Below, one piece after another: positions 16,264 through 58,578 of a stretch of 64,000 bases of DNA. A program made the position numbers and the translations under genes. Position 1 is the stretch's first letter. Each line of letters begins with the position of its first letter. Under the pieces are notes generated by a model that searched no databases, had not been told where the DNA came from, and saw only the letters and a program-made list of their open reading frames with translations. The stretch is from a virus: IMG/VR virus record IMGVR_UViG_3300045988_121463; one strand, 5' to 3'.

Positions 16264-16623
16264 ATGATCAGTGTTATGGAATTGATTTTGAAACAGAAGA
16301 AGAGGAGGATGAAGAATATGACGGATGAGGAATTTGCATTAGATAATAAGAAAAAAGTTGTTGTAAGAAAAAGAATATCCTATTTAAGCAAAGGGGATAA
16401 AGTGTGGATCGTGTCTTCCGACGGCTACCTGCTACACACGGACGTCGTTCGGCGGGATCGGGGCCGATCTTATGTGGATATAGACGGGATACTGTATTGG
16501 AAGCGAGGATTAGATGGCAAGCATCGTAATCGTAATAACTACATGCAGTTTGCCATGACGCCGGAGGACGGTAAGAAGTATGTCGTATATTACCCGGAAG
16601 GATTTAAAGACAATGACTTATGA
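16264..16623 (+). CDS. hypothetical protein
   Basis: 119-aa ORF. Confidence 0.4.
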   Translation: MISVMELILKQKKRRMKNMTDEEFALDNKKKVVVRKRISYLSKGDKVWIVSSDGYLLHTDVVRRDRGRSYVDIDGILYWKRGLDGKHRNRNNYMQFAMTPEDGKKYVVYYPEGFKDNDL

Positions 16624-17639
16624 TGGTCCCGGAAACGCATTTGCTATATAAGGAGTTTAATGGCGTGAAACGTCTTGCCATTTCCTATTCCCAGATAGAT
16701 ACGTTTCTTACCTGTCCAATGAAATGGTATAAGACTTACGTAGAGGGCAAAAGGTCTACGGAAAAACAAGAAGCTACGTCTTATGGTACGGTTATCCATA
16801 AGACACTGGAATACTTCTTTAAGAACGGAAGACAGCCTTCTGGAAAAGACCTGGGGGAAGCTATAAGTTACTATGCTTACCAAGAAGACATACCTTGGCA
16901 ATCACCGGAAAATATGATGATAGCCATGAAGCAATCCGGGGAGCTTCTTGCTTGGATTGTGGATCTGTTCAAAAAAGACGGCAATAGGTTTATGATAGCT
17001 GATAGTGATCTTAATCCCTGCGAGAAACTTATCAGACACAGCGCTATAGTTGGAGTCGAAGAAGATTTTGTGCTGCCGTACCGTCTTCCTAAGCCTGTTA
17101 ACATAAATGGAGTAATTCATACTCATGTGTACATAGTAGGATCGGTAGACCTTCATCTGGCTATAAAAAGCAAGAACGTAGTTCACCATTATGTCATAGA
17201 TTGGAAATCAGGTAATAAGGTTTTTGATTCTAAGAAGTTGGAAACAAATTTACAGCATCCTATATATTCATTTTACATCTATAGAAGATATGGTGGGGTT
17301 CTACCAGATATGAACATCTATTTCTTTACCAGGACCAGGCAGTACCAAAAGGTTAAGGTAGATGAGGAACGTAAAACAAAATCTATAGAGATGCTAAATG
17401 ACACTTTGTCTAAAATGTATGATTTTGAAGATAATAGTGTAAAATCATTTCAAGCGTACATCCAGGGAGCAGAAGGAGCCAGGTATAGCAAGCGGCGTGC
17501 CACCCTAAGCCAGCCTGTTTCGCAAAACAAGCTACCCTGCCCGTCAGCACTGTGTTATTATTGTGACTTTGGATTACATAACAAAAACGAATGCCCTTTC
17601 TCTTCGGATTGGGATCCGTCTAAAAAGATAAAACGATGA
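16620..17639 (+). CDS. Cas4-like PD-(D/E)XK nuclease with Fe-S-type cysteine cluster
   Basis: N-terminal CPMKWY, VDLHLAI, VIDWKSG (D-x-K), QHPIYSFY (QxxxY), C-terminal CPSALCYYC ... C cysteines. Confidence 0.6.
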   Translation: MMVPETHLLYKEFNGVKRLAISYSQIDTFLTCPMKWYKTYVEGKRSTEKQEATSYGTVIHKTLEYFFKNGRQPSGKDLGEAISYYAYQEDIPWQSPENMMIAMKQSGELLAWIVDLFKKDGNRFMIADSDLNPCEKLIRHSAIVGVEEDFVLPYRLPKPVNINGVIHTHVYIVGSVDLHLAIKSKNVVHHYVIDWKSGNKVFDSKKLETNLQHPIYSFYIYRRYGGVLPDMNIYFFTRTRQYQKVKVDEERKTKSIEMLNDTLSKMYDFEDNSVKSFQAYIQGAEGARYSKRRATLSQPVSQNKLPCPSALCYYCDFGLHNKNECPFSSDWDPSKKIKR

Positions 17640-34270: not shown

Positions 34271-34410
34271 ACCGCTTTATAAGAGAAGCAATATCATCAC
34301 CACAAACAAACATCATTCGACGTTCTTCTTTTGGTTTATGAGACACTGGGATGGTTTTGTTTATCTTAATCTGATTCGCCAGACCTCTGCCTAAACGAAT
34401 ATCAACTTTT

Positions 34411-34728
34411 TTACCTTTCATGAATTATTTGTTTAAACAGACCAATTCCATCTATTATAATATGACCGCTTTGCATACGACCATTATTAGGATTATGTAG
34501 AAAATTGAAACCACTTTCTTTTTCCTGTCTTTCAAAAGAACTGATATCCTTTCCTCTACGGGCTCTTTCAAAAGCTTTCTTGAACAACTTGCCTCTAAAG
34601 GTCTTGACGAGGATCTTGGTAGCGTTATTGCCGGCTTTTACCATTGCTTTCCTTGCCTGGTCCTCCGAGACAAAACTGCTTCGGAAAATATACGATGCTG
34701 CTGCTTGTATGTCCTGCTTGGTAATCAT
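34411..34728 (-). CDS. hypothetical protein
   Basis: 105-aa basic ORF. Confidence 0.4.
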   Translation of the reverse strand: MITKQDIQAAASYIFRSSFVSEDQARKAMVKAGNNATKILVKTFRGKLFKKAFERARRGKDISSFERQEKESGFNFLHNPNNGRMQSGHIIIDGIGLFKQIIHER

Positions 34729-35075
34729 ATGATAAACATTTCTTTCAGAATACTGATCTTTATTCCGTATATCAATTTCATCTCATCTCTATCATATACG
34801 TCAAAAAAGGATTCACTGGGGTCCTTTGGATTTACGTTCAATTGAATTATGCAATTACCGGTATAAACCTTAATTCCGTAATTATCAGAGTATATATCCT
34901 GCATAGTCTCAAATGTCTCAATTAAATTTTCAACAAGTACTCTGTTAAATGAAAAAGATTCTTTACCATCACCTTTAAATGTGATATGATCTAAATCCCT
35001 GTTGTCAAATTCATACTTTAATTGATTGCCGTCCATCATATCATAAGATATTGACTTTCTGATTATAAATCCCAT
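34725..35075 (-). CDS. hypothetical protein
   Basis: 116-aa ORF, coupled. Confidence 0.4.
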   Translation of the reverse strand: MGFIIRKSISYDMMDGNQLKYEFDNRDLDHITFKGDGKESFSFNRVLVENLIETFETMQDIYSDNYGIKVYTGNCIIQLNVNPKDPSESFFDVYDRDEMKLIYGIKISILKEMFII

Positions 35076-35092
35076 ATTGTTTTATTTTTTAG

Positions 35093-35398
35093 TTAATATA
35101 GATCTTCTGAATACAATTGTTCTCTAATGGCATTCCTATCTACTACCATTTCCTGATTATTGTTTCTAACAAGTTCAGATGCCTCCTCTCTTGTTAAAAA
35201 CCGATTCTTGCTTGTCAAAAATCCTTGAACACTGCGGTTTTTATGGGCTATACCGTATGCCGCAAGTTGAGATAGTATAGAGGGGTGTCTCAATCCACAG
35301 AACACGGTGCCGGATGGTATATTGGTGGGCTGATAGGGACGCTTCTTGCCGTCCTGCACCCAGATGGCAGCGCATATCACGATTTCTTTATTGCACAT
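35093..35398 (-). CDS. hypothetical protein
   Basis: 101-aa ORF. Confidence 0.4.
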   Translation of the reverse strand: MCNKEIVICAAIWVQDGKKRPYQPTNIPSGTVFCGLRHPSILSQLAAYGIAHKNRSVQGFLTSKNRFLTREEASELVRNNNQEMVVDRNAIREQLYSEDLY

Positions 35399-35400
35399 GA

Positions 35401-35676
35401 CTATAAATTTAATATTCCGTTTTTACCAATATGCTTCTTCTCTTCTTCAGTAGGCCATTCTTTCTTGAACTTACCATGCCACGTTCCAGGAACTACCACC
35501 ACTTCGTCTCCCTTACTATATTCAATAGCGGCACATTCAGAACAAAGAGGCTTGCCTTCATATCCCTTTAGCGACTTATCGTAAATACGATTCTTACAAG
35601 GTCTTATAAGAGCCCAATAACAGGATGTGGCTGTATTATCTATACAGCCACATTTTGAACAAACAAACAAACTCAT
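35401..35676 (-). CDS. zinc-ribbon protein
   Basis: CSKCGC ... CSEC. Confidence 0.4.
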   Translation of the reverse strand: MSLFVCSKCGCIDNTATSCYWALIRPCKNRIYDKSLKGYEGKPLCSECAAIEYSKGDEVVVVPGTWHGKFKKEWPTEEEKKHIGKNGILNL

Positions 35677-37195: not shown

Positions 37196-37215
37196 GATAT
37201 TTACAATATTTTAAT

Positions 37216-37431
37216 TTATTTTGCTAAAACATTCATATAACATGGCACATCTACCACATCTCTTCTACGAAGTCCCTTATCAAAATAGGAAACCATATAA
37301 GTATTTTTACCTTCGTGATCAGGTCTGGGATCAAAACATTCAAAAACGAATCTTGTTATACCTTCCAAATGACCAAGCATGAAAACAAATTCGCCACTGT
37401 ATCTTTTATTAGCCAATTCTTCTACAGTCAT
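37216..37431 (-). CDS. hypothetical protein
   Basis: 71-aa ORF. Confidence 0.3.
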   Translation of the reverse strand: MTVEELANKRYSGEFVFMLGHLEGITRFVFECFDPRPDHEGKNTYMVSYFDKGLRRRDVVDVPCYMNVLAK

Positions 37432-37655
37432 AATCTGTCCCCTCCTAATCCTGAATTGATGCTAACGTACTTAACACGGACATCATTTCCACGTCCAAGC
37501 TGACCCCAGCCGGGCGATGGCGTTCCCTTGGCCGGAGCAGGGACAGCCCTAAGCCGAGACCAGTCCTGCTTTTGCCTCATGGCTTCAGCCTCTTTGTAAT
37601 ACCGGTTACACAGTTCTTGATCTTCGTAACCAACGTAATCTTCCTTATTTTCCAT
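37428..37655 (-). CDS. hypothetical protein
   Basis: 75-aa ORF, coupled. Confidence 0.3.
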   Translation of the reverse strand: MENKEDYVGYEDQELCNRYYKEAEAMRQKQDWSRLRAVPAPAKGTPSPGWGQLGRGNDVRVKYVSINSGLGGDRL

Positions 37656-37726
37656 ATAGAATACTTTTTCAACAAAAGTACGACATTCATGAATTAATTA
37701 GATTTAAAATAAAACAATATGAATTA

Positions 37727-37760
37727 AAATAAAAACCCGATACGTTAAAATCGCATCGGG
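37727..37760 (-). terminator. intrinsic terminator (minus strand)
   Basis: CCCGATACG / CGCATCGGG stem (8 of 9 bp) with a 7-nt loop; the A-run on + (37727-37735) gives a U-run after the stem in minus-sense RNA. Confidence 0.55.
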
Positions 37761-37783
37761 CCCGGTATTGAAAAAAAATAGGT

Positions 37784-37959
37784 TCAGATCTTGGGTAAAG
37801 ATTCGAGCCAATTTTTAACATCTTTATATTTAGGGTCTTTGTCTATTCTATCTTTCAGTTCATGCAATGCTGAGTCCATAACCGTATTCGGTACGCCAAT
37901 CAACTCTCCTATTAAATACAAGGGGGTTTTATTCGATTTAGATTCATGTGCTATATTCA
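37784..37959 (-). CDS. small hypothetical protein (58 aa, below the ORF-track cutoff)
   Basis: Translated by hand: MNIAHESKSNKTPLYLIGELIGVPNTVMDSALHELKDRIDKDPKYKDVKNWLESLPKI. Ends 24 nt before the terminator. Confidence 0.3.
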
Positions 37960-38123
37960 TATCCCAAAAAAGTTATGTGAAACAAACCGGCCACGGGTAT
38001 TCTATTGCCCGCCGACCGGTATAATATTTTTATTCCTTTTTTTCCAAACGGGAAAAACGGGAATGCGGGAATCATATTTTTTACTATGGCTCCCGCACCA
38101 CCGGAAGGACCTGGATCTGGATC

Positions 38124-38417
38124 TCAGGTCAGATCCTTCCAGTTTATTTTTTCGCCGAGGTAATCTTGCACGGCAAGCCATCTTATAAAGGCTACTCCTT
38201 CGGGAGCATCCGGATCATCCAAATACATTAACGTAGCTTTCACCAACTCGTTCTCACATTTGAAGACCTTCGGAAAACCATCCGAATAGTACATTGCAAA
38301 GACATATTGGACATCGCCCCATGTCGCTTTATCCGGCTTCTTCGCTCCGCACTTTTCAAAAATATCTTTTATTTCCGGCTGCTTCCAGATCCTCTTGGAT
38401 CCATCGACGTTGACCAT
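38124..38417 (-). CDS. hypothetical protein
   Basis: 97-aa ORF; the stop codon is embedded in a GGAAGGA / TCCTTCC hairpin. Confidence 0.4.
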   Translation of the reverse strand: MVNVDGSKRIWKQPEIKDIFEKCGAKKPDKATWGDVQYVFAMYYSDGFPKVFKCENELVKATLMYLDDPDAPEGVAFIRWLAVQDYLGEKINWKDLT

Positions 38418-56754: not shown

Positions 56755-56807
56755 AAAGATAAGAGAAACGAACGAGAAAATCCAACGTTATGGGATACGT
56801 TTAAAAA

Positions 56808-57827
56808 TCAATCATGTACGGCAGACAAACCGCCCGAATCAGGGTCGTACTTAAGACCGCATGCCCGGCGATAGTTCTTAAGCGCTCTCTTGTACAAAAA
56901 CAGCACTGTCTTGGAAACTATTTTCTTCATAGATTTGGTTAAAACCTCTTCTGTTGAAACAGACATCAGACAGCTATTCAAAAACGACCTGACATTGGAA
57001 CCGAACAAGATCTTCACCATTTTTCTAAACGTTCTAAAAAGATATGATGCAGAAAGAGACTTTAACCCATTGCGAACCAGTCTCTTATTCAAATACGAAA
57101 CAGCCTTTTCAGATAGACAGAGCCTATTCTTTCCTTCGCTATCTACCTCTGATGAAAACCACGAATATAAAGTGGTAGGATGTTTCTTAAGGTGATTGAT
57201 GAAGGAAGTCATTATCCCTTCTTTTAAAGCCCTTTTGTGGGCTACGCATGCAGCAATCTTCTCTTCTCTTTTTAAAGAGCTGTCAAGGCATCTAAACACC
57301 GTCCTATCGTCTCCGATGAAATACTGAGGACGTTCTTCCTTGAACTTAGCCCGATAAGCGGCATATCCTTCCTTACGAAGCATATCTATCTGAGACCGGA
57401 TATAGAACCTTACACACTTTTCTTCAGCCTCTTGCACGCTTTTAAGATAAGGAACTGACTTTCTCCCATATCGAAGATAATCATAAACCATAGCCTCAAT
57501 AAAGTCATTGTACGGAAAGAATCTTCCAAATCCAAAGTTCCAAACTATGAAACATCGCACTCTATCTTTCCAGTAATCAGATATGAGAAAATTACTACAA
57601 TATCTCAACTTCCTGTTTTTCTGATAGAAATGATGAGTATGTTTGTCATAAAATAGATTAAAATATCTCAAATTGCCTAAACACTGACCGGCTGGACGGC
57701 GTACTACATTGTACCCTAAGTTGCTGAAGCTATTGTATATAACTTCTATCGGAGAGACCTGCTCTTTCTTGAAGAGCTTGTCGTGTAACTTGTGAGGATT
57801 CATTATTTCAGTTATTTTTGTCTCCAT
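56808..57827 (-). CDS. candidate HUH-type endonuclease (Rep-like) protein
   Basis: Has an H-u-H-like KHTHHFY about 95 aa upstream of YAAYRAKFK (Y-x-x-Y-x-x-K). At 339 aa it is in the size range of microvirus and plasmid rolling-circle initiators. No motif-1 equivalent identified. Confidence 0.3.
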   Translation of the reverse strand: METKITEIMNPHKLHDKLFKKEQVSPIEVIYNSFSNLGYNVVRRPAGQCLGNLRYFNLFYDKHTHHFYQKNRKLRYCSNFLISDYWKDRVRCFIVWNFGFGRFFPYNDFIEAMVYDYLRYGRKSVPYLKSVQEAEEKCVRFYIRSQIDMLRKEGYAAYRAKFKEERPQYFIGDDRTVFRCLDSSLKREEKIAACVAHKRALKEGIMTSFINHLKKHPTTLYSWFSSEVDSEGKNRLCLSEKAVSYLNKRLVRNGLKSLSASYLFRTFRKMVKILFGSNVRSFLNSCLMSVSTEEVLTKSMKKIVSKTVLFLYKRALKNYRRACGLKYDPDSGGLSAVHD

Positions 57828-57883
57828 ATTGTTTTTGTTTTTTAGTGCAAATATATGATTTTATATAAAAAGAAGAAAATGCA

Positions 57884-57935
57884 CTGCCTTGTATCCGGTT
57901 TGAGAGAAATAGGATACAAGGTTTTTTATTTTATG
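57884..57935 (+). terminator. strong hairpin plus T-run, oriented on the + strand inside a minus-strand block
   Basis: CCTTGTATCC / GGATACAAGG, a perfect 10-bp stem with a 15-nt loop, then TTTTTTATTTT. Confidence 0.4.
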
Positions 57936-58146
57936 ACGGTTTGGATAAGAGACAGGAAAACGACTCTGAACGTAACCGACTGACCGTCAGTGGTGGGACA
58001 ACAAATCTTGAATTAAAACTACGCCTATGAATAGTCTCCGTTTTCCTTAATATTAAGACCATTTTCAATGATCTTACTCATTATATTATTTATATTATTT
58101 TATATACTTTACCATTTATTCATATAATTGTTTATAGTGAATGAAC

Positions 58147-58335
58147 TTAACGACCGAAGGGAGTTAAGTGAGTGAACGGATTGACAAATTACTTTTTCCG
58201 TCATTGTATTGTTCGCCTAATTGTGTTAAAAGATTGAGTATCGTGACCAAAGGGAACGATGCGAAAGAACTTATAATATTTAAAAACGACTGAACCTATC
58301 GACTGAAGGGAGATAGGTGATGGAGTGACGTTAAT
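58147..58335. repeat. imperfect direct repeats in a GC-rich non-coding island
   Basis: CGACCGAAGGGAGTTAAGTGAGTGAACG (58151-58178) versus CGACTGAAGGGAGATAGGTGATGGAGTGACG (58300-58330). A related ACGACTGAAC / CGACTGACCGTCAG occurs at 57959-57993. Confidence 0.5.
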
Positions 58336-58578
58336 AGTTATATTAGGTAGCCAGTGGAGAATTAGGCAGGCTGGTAGGCGAGACGAGCGCCCATGCCCGT
58401 CAGGACAGTGGAAGTACGTAGGTCTGTTCTGTTAAACCAAGGTGATGATAGTTCCATCCTTCACGAAATCGCACAAAAAAGCCGGATTATCTTGATATCG
58501 TTCTTCAACCTCCGGTATCCGCATAACGAGTCTCAAATCCGGCTTCGCTTTATTAATATGAGAAATAAAATAATTGTT

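Follow-up and report, generated by a model that had tools for sequence, protein, structure and literature searches.

Introduction

C-GNA-G and GNNA DNA mini-hairpins occur in the complementary-strand origin of phage G4, in the ssiA site of plasmid RSF1010 (CCGAAGG) and in the virion-polymerase promoters of phage N4 (PMC13037366), and GNA triloops (or GNNA loops) closed by a C·G pair are the rule for extraordinarily stable mini-hairpins of DNA (PMC13037366). Here we describe a locus with hairpins of this kind in the IMG/VR virus record IMGVR_UViG_3300045988_121463, of which a stretch of 64,000 nucleotides was analysed (the window). The locus comprises the gene for a 339-aa protein, which we call X, and the non-coding DNA upstream of it, and it belongs to a human-gut crAss-like phage, within a run of minus-strand virion genes. 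In common with the G4 origin, with ssiA and ssiB of RSF1010 (used by the primase RepB') and with the N4 promoters, it presents several hairpins with a C-GNA-G tip on one strand of a non-coding stretch and, in common with RSF1010, it encodes a dedicated protein nearby. It differs from all of these in that its units are longer (~45 nt), contain up to three tandem G·A loops and all lie on the same strand, that X does not resemble RepB', DnaG or any polymerase, and that the motif does not recur elsewhere in the genome.

In the 4.5 kb compared, the window is ~98% identical to csAssE-Sib (OR575929.1), an Epsilon crAss-like phage. Phages of this group have a minimal replication machinery and no described initiator (PMC7886860). 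The genes of csAssE-Sib include those for a divergent primase and a virion RNA polymerase (PMC11054128); in crAss-like phages this polymerase prefers single-stranded templates and uses early promoters without a linear consensus (bioRxiv 10.1101/2020.03.07.982082). A 2025 paper reports that Epsilon crAss-like genomes carry no mobile elements (PMC12386605). We found no description of the present locus in the literature on these phages.

A different set of precedents is offered by the origin-initiator and immunity modules of lambdoid phages and by morons. By analogy, the locus would resemble them in that a gene and its cis sites are swapped as a sharp-bordered block between near-identical genomes, in having its own promoter and in being inserted after a terminator and ahead of the following gene in a late operon. 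In contrast to these precedents, its cis sites appear to be folded single-strand elements rather than duplex iterons or operators, its protein belongs to a new family and its location is among the tail and virion genes.

Results

The gene and its upstream DNA are exchanged as one unit

X and its non-coding DNA form one discrete unit of exchange and of insertion or deletion, ~1.68 kb long (window ~56790-58470), which we refer to as the cassette. At the position it occupies in the window, site 1, identity to an alternative allele is 95-100% down to ~58470 and 100% from 56785 onward; from ~58470 to ~56800 it is 28-90% per 40-nt bin, mostly 40-75%. The borders are sharp, with no gradient, and the left break falls directly after the T-run of the terminator of the upstream tail-lysozyme gene, which is itself 98% identical between site-1 alleles. 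Site 1 was occupied in all 80 of 80 contigs.

At a second site the cassette is optional. Site 2 lies in the same phage genus, in the region that holds the diversity-generating retroelement (DGR) and receptor-binding protein, between a DUF6808 gene and the gene for a 292-aa structural protein; its flanking genes have no match in the window, and a 685-aa protein encoded nearby has a csAssE-Sib counterpart at 94% identity. The X homologues at site 2 are ~61% (61-63%) identical to X and also have a gap of ~750 bp upstream. Filled sites (~1.8-2.0 kb) were found in 25 of 79 IMG/VR contigs and empty ones, with an 83-bp spacer, in the other 54; csAssE-Sib itself is empty, its DUF6808 and 292-aa genes standing 83 bp apart. 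At least nine contigs hold both a site-1 and a site-2 copy. The insertion at site 2 begins at the upstream gene's stop codon and ends shortly beyond that of X. Identity of the flanks drops toward the insertion, on the left through 87, 80, 73 and 58% (last ~250 nt) and on the right to 74 and then 88%, and is 97-100% farther away.

The original prediction, made by a model from the letters of this DNA, had raised the possibility of a small element, microvirus-like or IS91/helitron-like, inserted into the virion operon. Its first half finds support, in that gap and gene act as one indel and exchange unit, but the kinship with those elements does not. The search for target-site duplications that it had recommended gave none when filled and empty sites were compared, and terminal repeats or inverted ends were likewise absent. 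The cassette has a single open reading frame (ORF) and contains no recognisable transposase, nuclease or capsid gene.

TnpB (OrfB_IS605) genes also occur in the virion region of these phages, at 30-1169 of contig L002 and at 58986-60125 and 64190-65413 of csAssE-Sib; one of them is a few kb from site 2. The cassette and the TnpB genes are at odds with the published absence of mobile elements (PMC12386605).

A natural chimera, P0002 (L007 6145-7161), matches the P0009 allele of X over residues 1 to ~148 and the window type over the rest, and its non-coding DNA is of the P0009/L221 type. This suggests that an N-terminal part of X, which may determine specificity, is co-inherited with the cis elements. 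The arrangement can be followed into distant relatives, among which the positions of the cassette differ. In L093, X is 44% identical and the gene order is the same, with neighbouring genes 55-80% identical; in L092, X is 22% identical and follows a 540-bp gap; in L095, X is 25% identical and follows a gap of 1096 bp between two giant structural genes.

Three strand-specific hairpin units

The non-coding part of the cassette contains three copies of a ~45-nt unit, all on the strand opposite to X (u1 to u3, Table 1). The original prediction had noted imperfect direct repeats, two copies each; the pair CGACCGAAGGGAG (58151) and CGACTGAAGGGAG (58300) is indeed present, as parts of a hairpin unit that occurs three times and not twice, and the second supposed repeat, ACGACTGAAC, occurs once. 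Each unit follows the plan 5'-GU-GA-NU-GA-N, a 6-bp stem, GA-NC-GNA-GN'-GA, the other half of the stem and N-GA-NN-GA-AC-3', so that short helices alternate with 2x2 loops in which tandem G·A pairs can form, and a C-GNA-G triloop caps the unit. A covariance model of the unit (R1) had exactly three matches in the 64-kb window, with E ~1e-10, the next best having E = 2. No units were found elsewhere in the csAssE-Sib genome. Across 43 related loci, 122 of 122 matches were on the anti-gene strand, usually three per cassette.

The units keep their pairing. When 18 distinct units were aligned, 76% of the cells were paired, compared with 58% after shuffling, and the covariation score is 0.53, compared with 0.23 in shuffles (0 of 500 reached 0.53) and 0.08-0.21 for slid partners. 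The stems contain ~31 G·U cells and zero A·C cells. The pair that flanks the triloop alternates between C-G, G-C and A-U, and its covariation therefore fixes the register of the triloop and excludes a UNCG tetraloop on the other strand. A gene-strand fold with C(UUCG)G tetraloops was rejected on these grounds; that strand would also have A·C and pyrimidine-pyrimidine mismatches. Folding z-scores of the whole region did not separate the strands.

The tips of the units (CCGAAGG, CCGTAGG, CCGGAGG, GCGAAGC, ACGTAGT, CTGAAGG and one variant, CCAAAGG) follow the DNA mini-hairpin rule and include the exact ssiA sequence, CCGAAGG, and the classic GCGAAGC. The latter was found in site-2 alleles, and a GACA tip in L095. 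The units are thus strand-specific hairpins capped by a C-GNA-G or GNNA loop.

The number of units ranges from none to four among rare natural variants in which X is intact: L057 and L252 have none, L127 and L129 have two and L121 has four. L107 and L113 have internal duplications, and the number appears to change through deletions and duplications between repeats, in true variants or as assembly artefacts. Clustered GA-flanked C-GNA-G mini-hairpins (GAACGAAGTGA, GAGCGAAGCGA, GCCGAAGGC and similar) also occur in unrelated viral contigs, at 4580-4690 of L321 (IMGVR_UViG_3300021255_001460) and 12115-12185 of L334; in L321 the cluster lies in a ~2.4-kb ORF-free region with other direct repeats and no X homologue, and the covariance model gives E 0.007. 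The hairpin motif class may therefore be wider than this cassette.

Within its genome the motif is confined to the cassette and is therefore not a general phage promoter; a general virion-polymerase promoter, which we considered, is unsupported for that reason. The hairpins are more likely to be a private target of X.

Table 1. Features of the cassette and its border, in window coordinates
Feature	Position	Strand	Details
Gene X, 339-aa orphan protein	56808..57827	-	Basic, mostly alpha-helical; sole ORF of the cassette
Antisense -7 box TATTTTTG	57813..57820	+	At the X start codon, directed toward hairpin T
-7 promoter box of X, Bacteroidetes-type, TATATTTG	57848..57855	-	GCAAAT core of the complement invariant in 28 aligned alleles
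Hairpin T, terminator-like	57887..57932	+	10-bp stem 57887-57896/57912-57921; 15-nt loop GGTTTGAGAGAAATA; T-run 57922-57932
Conserved block CGTAAC..CTGAnCnTCAG..GGTGGGACAA..ATCTTGAAT	57968..58012	+	Contains palindrome 57979-57991; invariant or near-invariant columns
AT-rich tract, ~15% GC	58050..58134		Conserved stretch TTATTCATAT-TATTTTA
Hairpin unit u3, GUGA-AUGA-A / CUUAAC / GA-CC-GAA-GG-GA / GUUAAG / U-GAGU-GAAC	58135..58179	+	R1 54.4 bits, E = 4e-11; RNA fold ((..((..(((((((..((...))..)))))))..))..)); -13.1 kcal/mol, other strand -6.8
Hairpin unit u2, stem TATCGT/ACGATG, tip GACCAAAGGGA	58228..58272	+	R1 49.7 bits, E = 8e-10; -11.8 kcal/mol, other strand -4.7
Hairpin unit u1, stem CCTATC/GATAGG, tip GACTGAAGGGA with U·G pair	58284..58328	+	R1 54.2 bits, E = 5e-11; RNA fold -13.7 kcal/mol, other strand -7.3
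G-rich conserved block GTAGCCAGTGGAGAATTAGGCAGGCTGGTAGGCGAG...CAGGACAG	58338..58470	+	GC 0.479, G 40, C 27; reaches the distal cassette border; invariant columns
Terminator hairpin of the upstream tail-lysozyme gene	58478..58545	-	AGCCGGATT...AATCCGGCT then TTTTTT; outside the cassette

Predicted promoters, a probable antisense terminator and other conserved elements

The stretch of ~750 bp that the original prediction had called non-coding is 751 bp long (57828-58578) and is non-coding. Every one of its six frames contains 2-13 TAA codons and stops of several kinds, and the gap is therefore non-coding under any known stop-codon reassignment; hidden coding through a recoded stop codon was ruled out on the same count. 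The further claim that the stretch is GC-rich could not be reproduced: its GC content is 0.364, that of the window is 0.381 and that of the left 313 nt is 0.294, and only the segment 58331-58470 is richer, at 0.479. The plus strand of the gap has more G than C (155 vs 118), the reverse of the flanking genes.

Bacteroides promoters have the -7 consensus TAnnTTTG. A box of this type precedes X, and across the 28 aligned alleles the AT positions beside its core show rare changes only. A second box lies on the opposite strand at the start of X. An exact TAnnTTTG on the anti-gene strand within ~15 nt of the X start was present in 9 of 14 alleles from five lineages, including the distant L093 and L095, at a background of ~5e-4 per position. 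Downstream of this antisense box is hairpin T, which has six covarying pairs, 15-19 G·U cells and zero A·C cells; this pattern implies that it folds on the plus strand. Its folding z-score is -4.65 with RNA and -5.86 with DNA parameters, and its loop is conserved in L093, L092 and L095. With a stem and a U-run (TTTTTTATTTT on the plus strand) downstream of a promoter on the same strand, hairpin T is a probable terminator, although a simple terminator scanner, with a loop limit of 8 nt, missed it. The antisense box would thus give an antisense RNA of ~105 nt ending at hairpin T.

A predicted short antisense transcript that starts inside or beside the 5' end of a gene and ends in a stem-loop with a conserved loop and a U-run recalls the control of plasmid rep genes (R1 CopA, ColE2 RNAI, pT181) and type I toxin-antitoxin systems. 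Unlike in these systems, the predicted overlap with the X mRNA is only ~15-20 nt, and the loop has no complementary target elsewhere in the window: a search for a kissing partner gave none within 3 mismatches.

The perfect palindrome ACTGACCGTCAGT of the original prediction is present at 57979. It lies in a conserved block for which the only predicted helix is the 4-bp CTGA/TCAG, without covariation. Just upstream of the first hairpin unit are -10-like hexamers and a conserved A/T segment. In distant relatives the place of the G-rich block is taken by runs of three to five G, such as GGGGAGGGGAAAGGGGAGAGGG, with the potential to form G-quadruplexes; these lie on the anti-gene strand in L093 (5470-5500) and L092 (2480-2545) and apparently on the gene strand in L095 (5075-5370). 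Rfam recognised only a tRNA in the whole window at gathering thresholds, and 57700-58700 at E <= 10 gave chance-level matches only. GOLLD, ROOL, Y RNA, HEARO and CRISPR repeats were discarded as identities of the non-coding part for lack of an Rfam match.

X is an orphan protein without the signatures of a Rep

The 339-aa ORF with KHTHHFY and YAAYRAKFK is present as described in the original prediction, which had likened these strings to motifs 2 and 3 of rolling-circle Rep/HUH endonucleases. The first likeness does not survive comparison within the family. KHTHHFY is GRFDRWY in P0002, a protein 83% identical, and KTGHFF or KTRHFF in P0005, P0006 and P0008, and no conserved His column exists; the string falls in residues 21-72, where the AlphaFold (AF2) model of X has a confidence score (pLDDT) below 50. 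Of YAAYRAKFK, distant members share only Y158 and R159. Ten of 11 sequences have Y158, the exception being P0009 with F; Y155 is replaced by H or E in P0018, P0032 and P0033. A lone tyrosine without an HUH motif is not diagnostic. The three families proposed for a profile search, PF05840 Phage_GPA, PF01446 Rep_1 and PF02486 Rep_trans, were all absent in Pfam at E <= 1; the only match of X at that threshold was to AAA_lid_5 at the chance level of E = 0.076, and its distant homologues also lack a Rep family. The HUH fold, an alpha/beta fold with its motif on a central antiparallel sheet, was not matched by the model of X, which has an overall pLDDT of 70.5 and is mostly helical, with helices over residues 84-322. 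We therefore reject the HUH/Rep identity of X on motif conservation, profile searches and fold. Of the two findings that the original prediction had named as refuting it, one was obtained: no confident alternative fold emerged, but the gene is conserved at its position, in every site-1 contig and in the same order at 44% identity.

Neither X nor its relatives match a family in Pfam, PHROG, NCBIfam, PADLOC or the PDB sequences. GIY-YIG, HNH, LAGLIDADG and PD-(D/E)xK nuclease signatures were looked for in X with Pfam, PHROG and NCBIfam and were not found. A single match to a sigma model (E = 0.007) concerned one family member, and X has weak winged-helix-like matches. The family is tiny: a set of 5.8 billion sequences contains 16-17 of its clusters, and one of 1.84 billion contains 20 representatives. 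P0017 and P0018 had no match in IMG/VR. The ORF is intact in 117 of 119 related loci. X has a pI of 9.75, and its conserved positions are basic in 19 cases and acidic in 7, with one invariant acidic residue, E135. We infer from these properties that X is probably a nucleic-acid-binding protein without an obvious catalytic centre.

Some site-2 copies of X are interrupted, either by an in-frame TAA in place of AAA (in HFFKK) or by a frameshift (L006 5734-6783, P0014; L011, P0015), and the short clusters P0003, P0004, P0007 and P0010-P0012 may be similar split fragments or contig ends. Other identities were tried and set aside. X has no reverse-transcriptase motif, which speaks against a reverse transcriptase, retron or DGR template, and the DGR of the phage lies elsewhere (43.8-47.8 kb of csAssE-Sib). 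A TnpB, IscB or IS110-type RNA-guided enzyme is contradicted by the absence of a Pfam match and of a conserved acidic triad. The protein encoded at window 16620-17639, also of 339 aa, was examined as a paralogue of X and is unrelated.

Genomic setting

In the order of transcription, the region consists of a TROVE/Ro60-like gene, a gene for a 154-aa protein, the gene for the 823-aa tail lysozyme (PF18013, 7.9e-32), the 751-bp gap, X, and the genes for 955-aa and 1007-aa structural proteins. The TROVE/Ro60-like gene (PF05731, 7.8e-14; 61509-63143, minus strand) adjoins tRNA genes at 63259-63332 and 63405-63477 on the same strand, the second of which is tRNA-Asp(gtc) according to ARAGORN and tRNA-Tyr in the GenBank record of csAssE-Sib. 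No Rfam Y RNA that could partner the Ro60 homologue was found in the window. Two further stretches of 1.1-1.4 kb lack any ORF of at least 120 aa (34271-35672 and 37196-38306), and the hairpin covariance model has no match there.

Discussion

What the observations support best is an exchangeable cassette in which a putative structure-specific binding protein is paired with its own array of strand-specific cis sites. The mechanism that we rank first, and hold tentatively, is that the cassette serves as a single-strand origin or in a priming-type role, with X under antisense control. X would be transcribed from its own host-type promoter, and ~650 nt of cis elements precede it, every one folding on the opposite strand. 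The plus strand might be made single-stranded through melting of the AT-rich tract or through antisense transcription, and would then fold into the mini-hairpins. X, as a non-catalytic, structure-specific protein, would bind these single-stranded hairpins, and its binding would lead to the priming of DNA synthesis, while the short antisense RNA ending at hairpin T would control X. We infer the binding of the hairpins by X, their action in single-stranded form and the link to replication. It is tempting to speculate more generally that an orphan non-catalytic protein and a one-strand array of GA-rich, GNA-capped hairpins could together form a portable unit, exchanged and duplicated among crAss-like phages, that starts nucleic-acid synthesis by priming replication or by transcription from hairpin promoters, though we regard this broader formulation as rather doubtful.

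The original prediction had offered, as one option, that this is the phage's own Rep with an iteron-type origin in an odd place. An origin with its initiator is consistent with the AT-rich tract, with the repeated strand-specific hairpins and with the predicted antisense control; the GC skew, the DnaA boxes and the lack of a match to known initiator families speak against it. Three units and a tract of ~15% GC upstream of X do invite comparison with iterons, but the units keep pairing rather than sequence, unlike duplex iterons. Several observations count against an origin. X has no match to an initiator, primase or helicase-loader family, including Rep_3/RepA, DnaA-like and O-like proteins. 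The cumulative GC skew turns at ~26 kb and not at 58 kb, and each module has 0-1 DnaA-like boxes, the background being 0.45 per kb; a DnaA-dependent origin is rejected for want of a box excess, and a skew-indicated origin for want of a turn at the locus. The locus, within the late structural operon and at a long distance from the genes for replication, is in an unusual place for an origin. The rare variants L057 and L252 have an intact X but none of the three hairpins, which argues against an essential origin unless these contigs are defective or misassembled. In addition, RNA parameters favour the plus-strand hairpins far more than DNA parameters do, the difference between the strands being small for DNA, and on thermodynamic grounds a reading in terms of RNA is therefore no worse. 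In L095, the most distant homologue, the gene strand appears to carry the G-rich side, a weak match (E = 0.19) that was not used.

The skew peak is the sole turn in the window, and at ~25.7-26.5 kb the plus- and minus-strand gene blocks converge.

The explanation that we place a close second, possible and only slightly less probable than the first, is a structured plus-strand RNA of ~350-650 nt, comprising the three GA-rich hairpins and the G-rich block, in an accessory complex with X. Such an RNA could start in the AT tract or, if transcription passed through hairpin T, at the antisense promoter, and could serve, for example, in anti-defence, host takeover or late-gene regulation; diversifying selection would then explain the swapping of cassettes. 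As RNA, the plus-strand hairpins reach -11.8 to -13.7 kcal/mol (z -4.1 to -4.6), about twice the values of the other strand (-4.7 to -7.3), and structured RNAs typically contain G·U pairs and tandem G·A loops. The conserved antisense promoter upstream of hairpin T and the A/T segment with -10-like hexamers before the first unit are candidate starts, yet the sole canonical plus-strand -7 box upstream of the hairpins precedes a hairpin and U-run that should stop transcription. RNAalifold predicts long-range helices with some compensatory changes, but from three lineages only, and no Rfam family matches even at E <= 10. Long intergenic regions of phage phi14:2 are among its most highly transcribed early RNAs (bioRxiv 10.1101/2020.03.07.982082), and the present phage has another RNA-binding module in its Ro60/TROVE gene. 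The GNA tips, and GACA in L095, nevertheless fit the DNA mini-hairpin rule and not the GNRA or UNCG loops usual in RNA (PMC13037366), and a hairpin number of 0-4 in natural variants sits poorly with a structured RNA. An unlikely further explanation is a moron-like regulatory or specificity cassette, in which X would be a DNA-binding repressor, activator, exclusion or late-gene factor and the upstream DNA would control it through overlapping promoters that diverge, a small antisense RNA ending at hairpin T and operator-like repeats, the alleles being heterospecific as in lambdoid immunity regions. The cassette does start after the upstream terminator, stop before the promoter of the next gene and carry its own host-type promoter, its two promoters overlap and face apart, and sharp-bordered divergent alleles in near-identical backgrounds, an optional second copy and a basic protein with weak winged-helix-like matches would all suit such a role. 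Operators, however, are normally near-identical duplexes, whereas the stems of the units differ yet pair, with G·U and G·A functional on one strand only; ~650 nt is long for a control region; and no helix-turn-helix, repressor or sigma family was detected for X, the E = 0.007 match of one member to a sigma model being the only such hit.

The presence or absence of the cassette in an intergenic position among phages that are 97-100% identical could also reflect selfish homing, with X as a new site-specific endonuclease or recombination-promoting protein that copies the cassette into empty sites of co-infecting relatives and the non-coding part serving expression or self-protection. We consider this quite improbable. 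The gradient in the flanks of site 2 resembles a co-conversion tract and cassette positions differ in distant lineages, but the site-1 alleles are sharp-bordered, without a gradient, and X shows no decay; occupancy of site 1 in 80 of 80 contigs and an order kept down to 44% identity describe a fixed core gene more than a patchy parasite. Intergenic presence and absence among close relatives and the divergence of the site-2 flanks are shared with the seg and mob homing genes of T4-like phages, from which the cassette differs in lacking a nuclease motif (X has no nuclease signature and one invariant acidic residue only), in its 650-nt structured non-coding part, and in being fixed at site 1 with an order conserved in distant relatives. 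Strand-specific DNA hairpins are recognised by HUH enzymes, as in IS200/IS605 and at the single-strand origins of rolling-circle plasmids. A ~340-aa protein beside such hairpins, with HxHH and a Tyr-rich stretch in the window copy and a nearly invariant Y158, was open to an interpretation along the lines of the original prediction, with X as a rolling-circle Rep or transposase of the HUH type that would use the hairpins as nicking or origin sites, whether in a microvirus-like, IS91-like or helitron-like element or in the phage's own rolling-circle origin. This model is largely refuted, and we give it very little probability. The defining motifs, profile matches and fold of the HUH superfamily (PF05840, PF01446, PF02486; IS200/IS605, IS91, helitrons) are all missing: the His motif is lost in close homologues and falls in a low-confidence part of the model, no Rep/HUH family of Pfam matches, the mostly helical model has no HUH-fold match, and there are no terminal repeats, no target-site duplication and no second gene such as a capsid gene.

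What is new in this locus is the protein family, the hairpin motif (absent from Rfam) and the pattern of presence and absence; modular phage cassettes that combine a protein with its cis sites are a familiar kind. The abundant viruses of the human gut include the Epsilon crAss-like phages, which have no DNA polymerase of their own and no described origin or initiator. In their genomes, an unannotated and deeply conserved protein family resides in a discrete cassette that is inserted, duplicated and swapped among near-identical genomes. If the hairpins are initiation signals, or the core of a new RNA-protein complex, they would provide an experimental handle on replication or early expression in phages that are uncultured. 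Otherwise, recombination and strain differences among these phages would still be cleanly marked by the locus.

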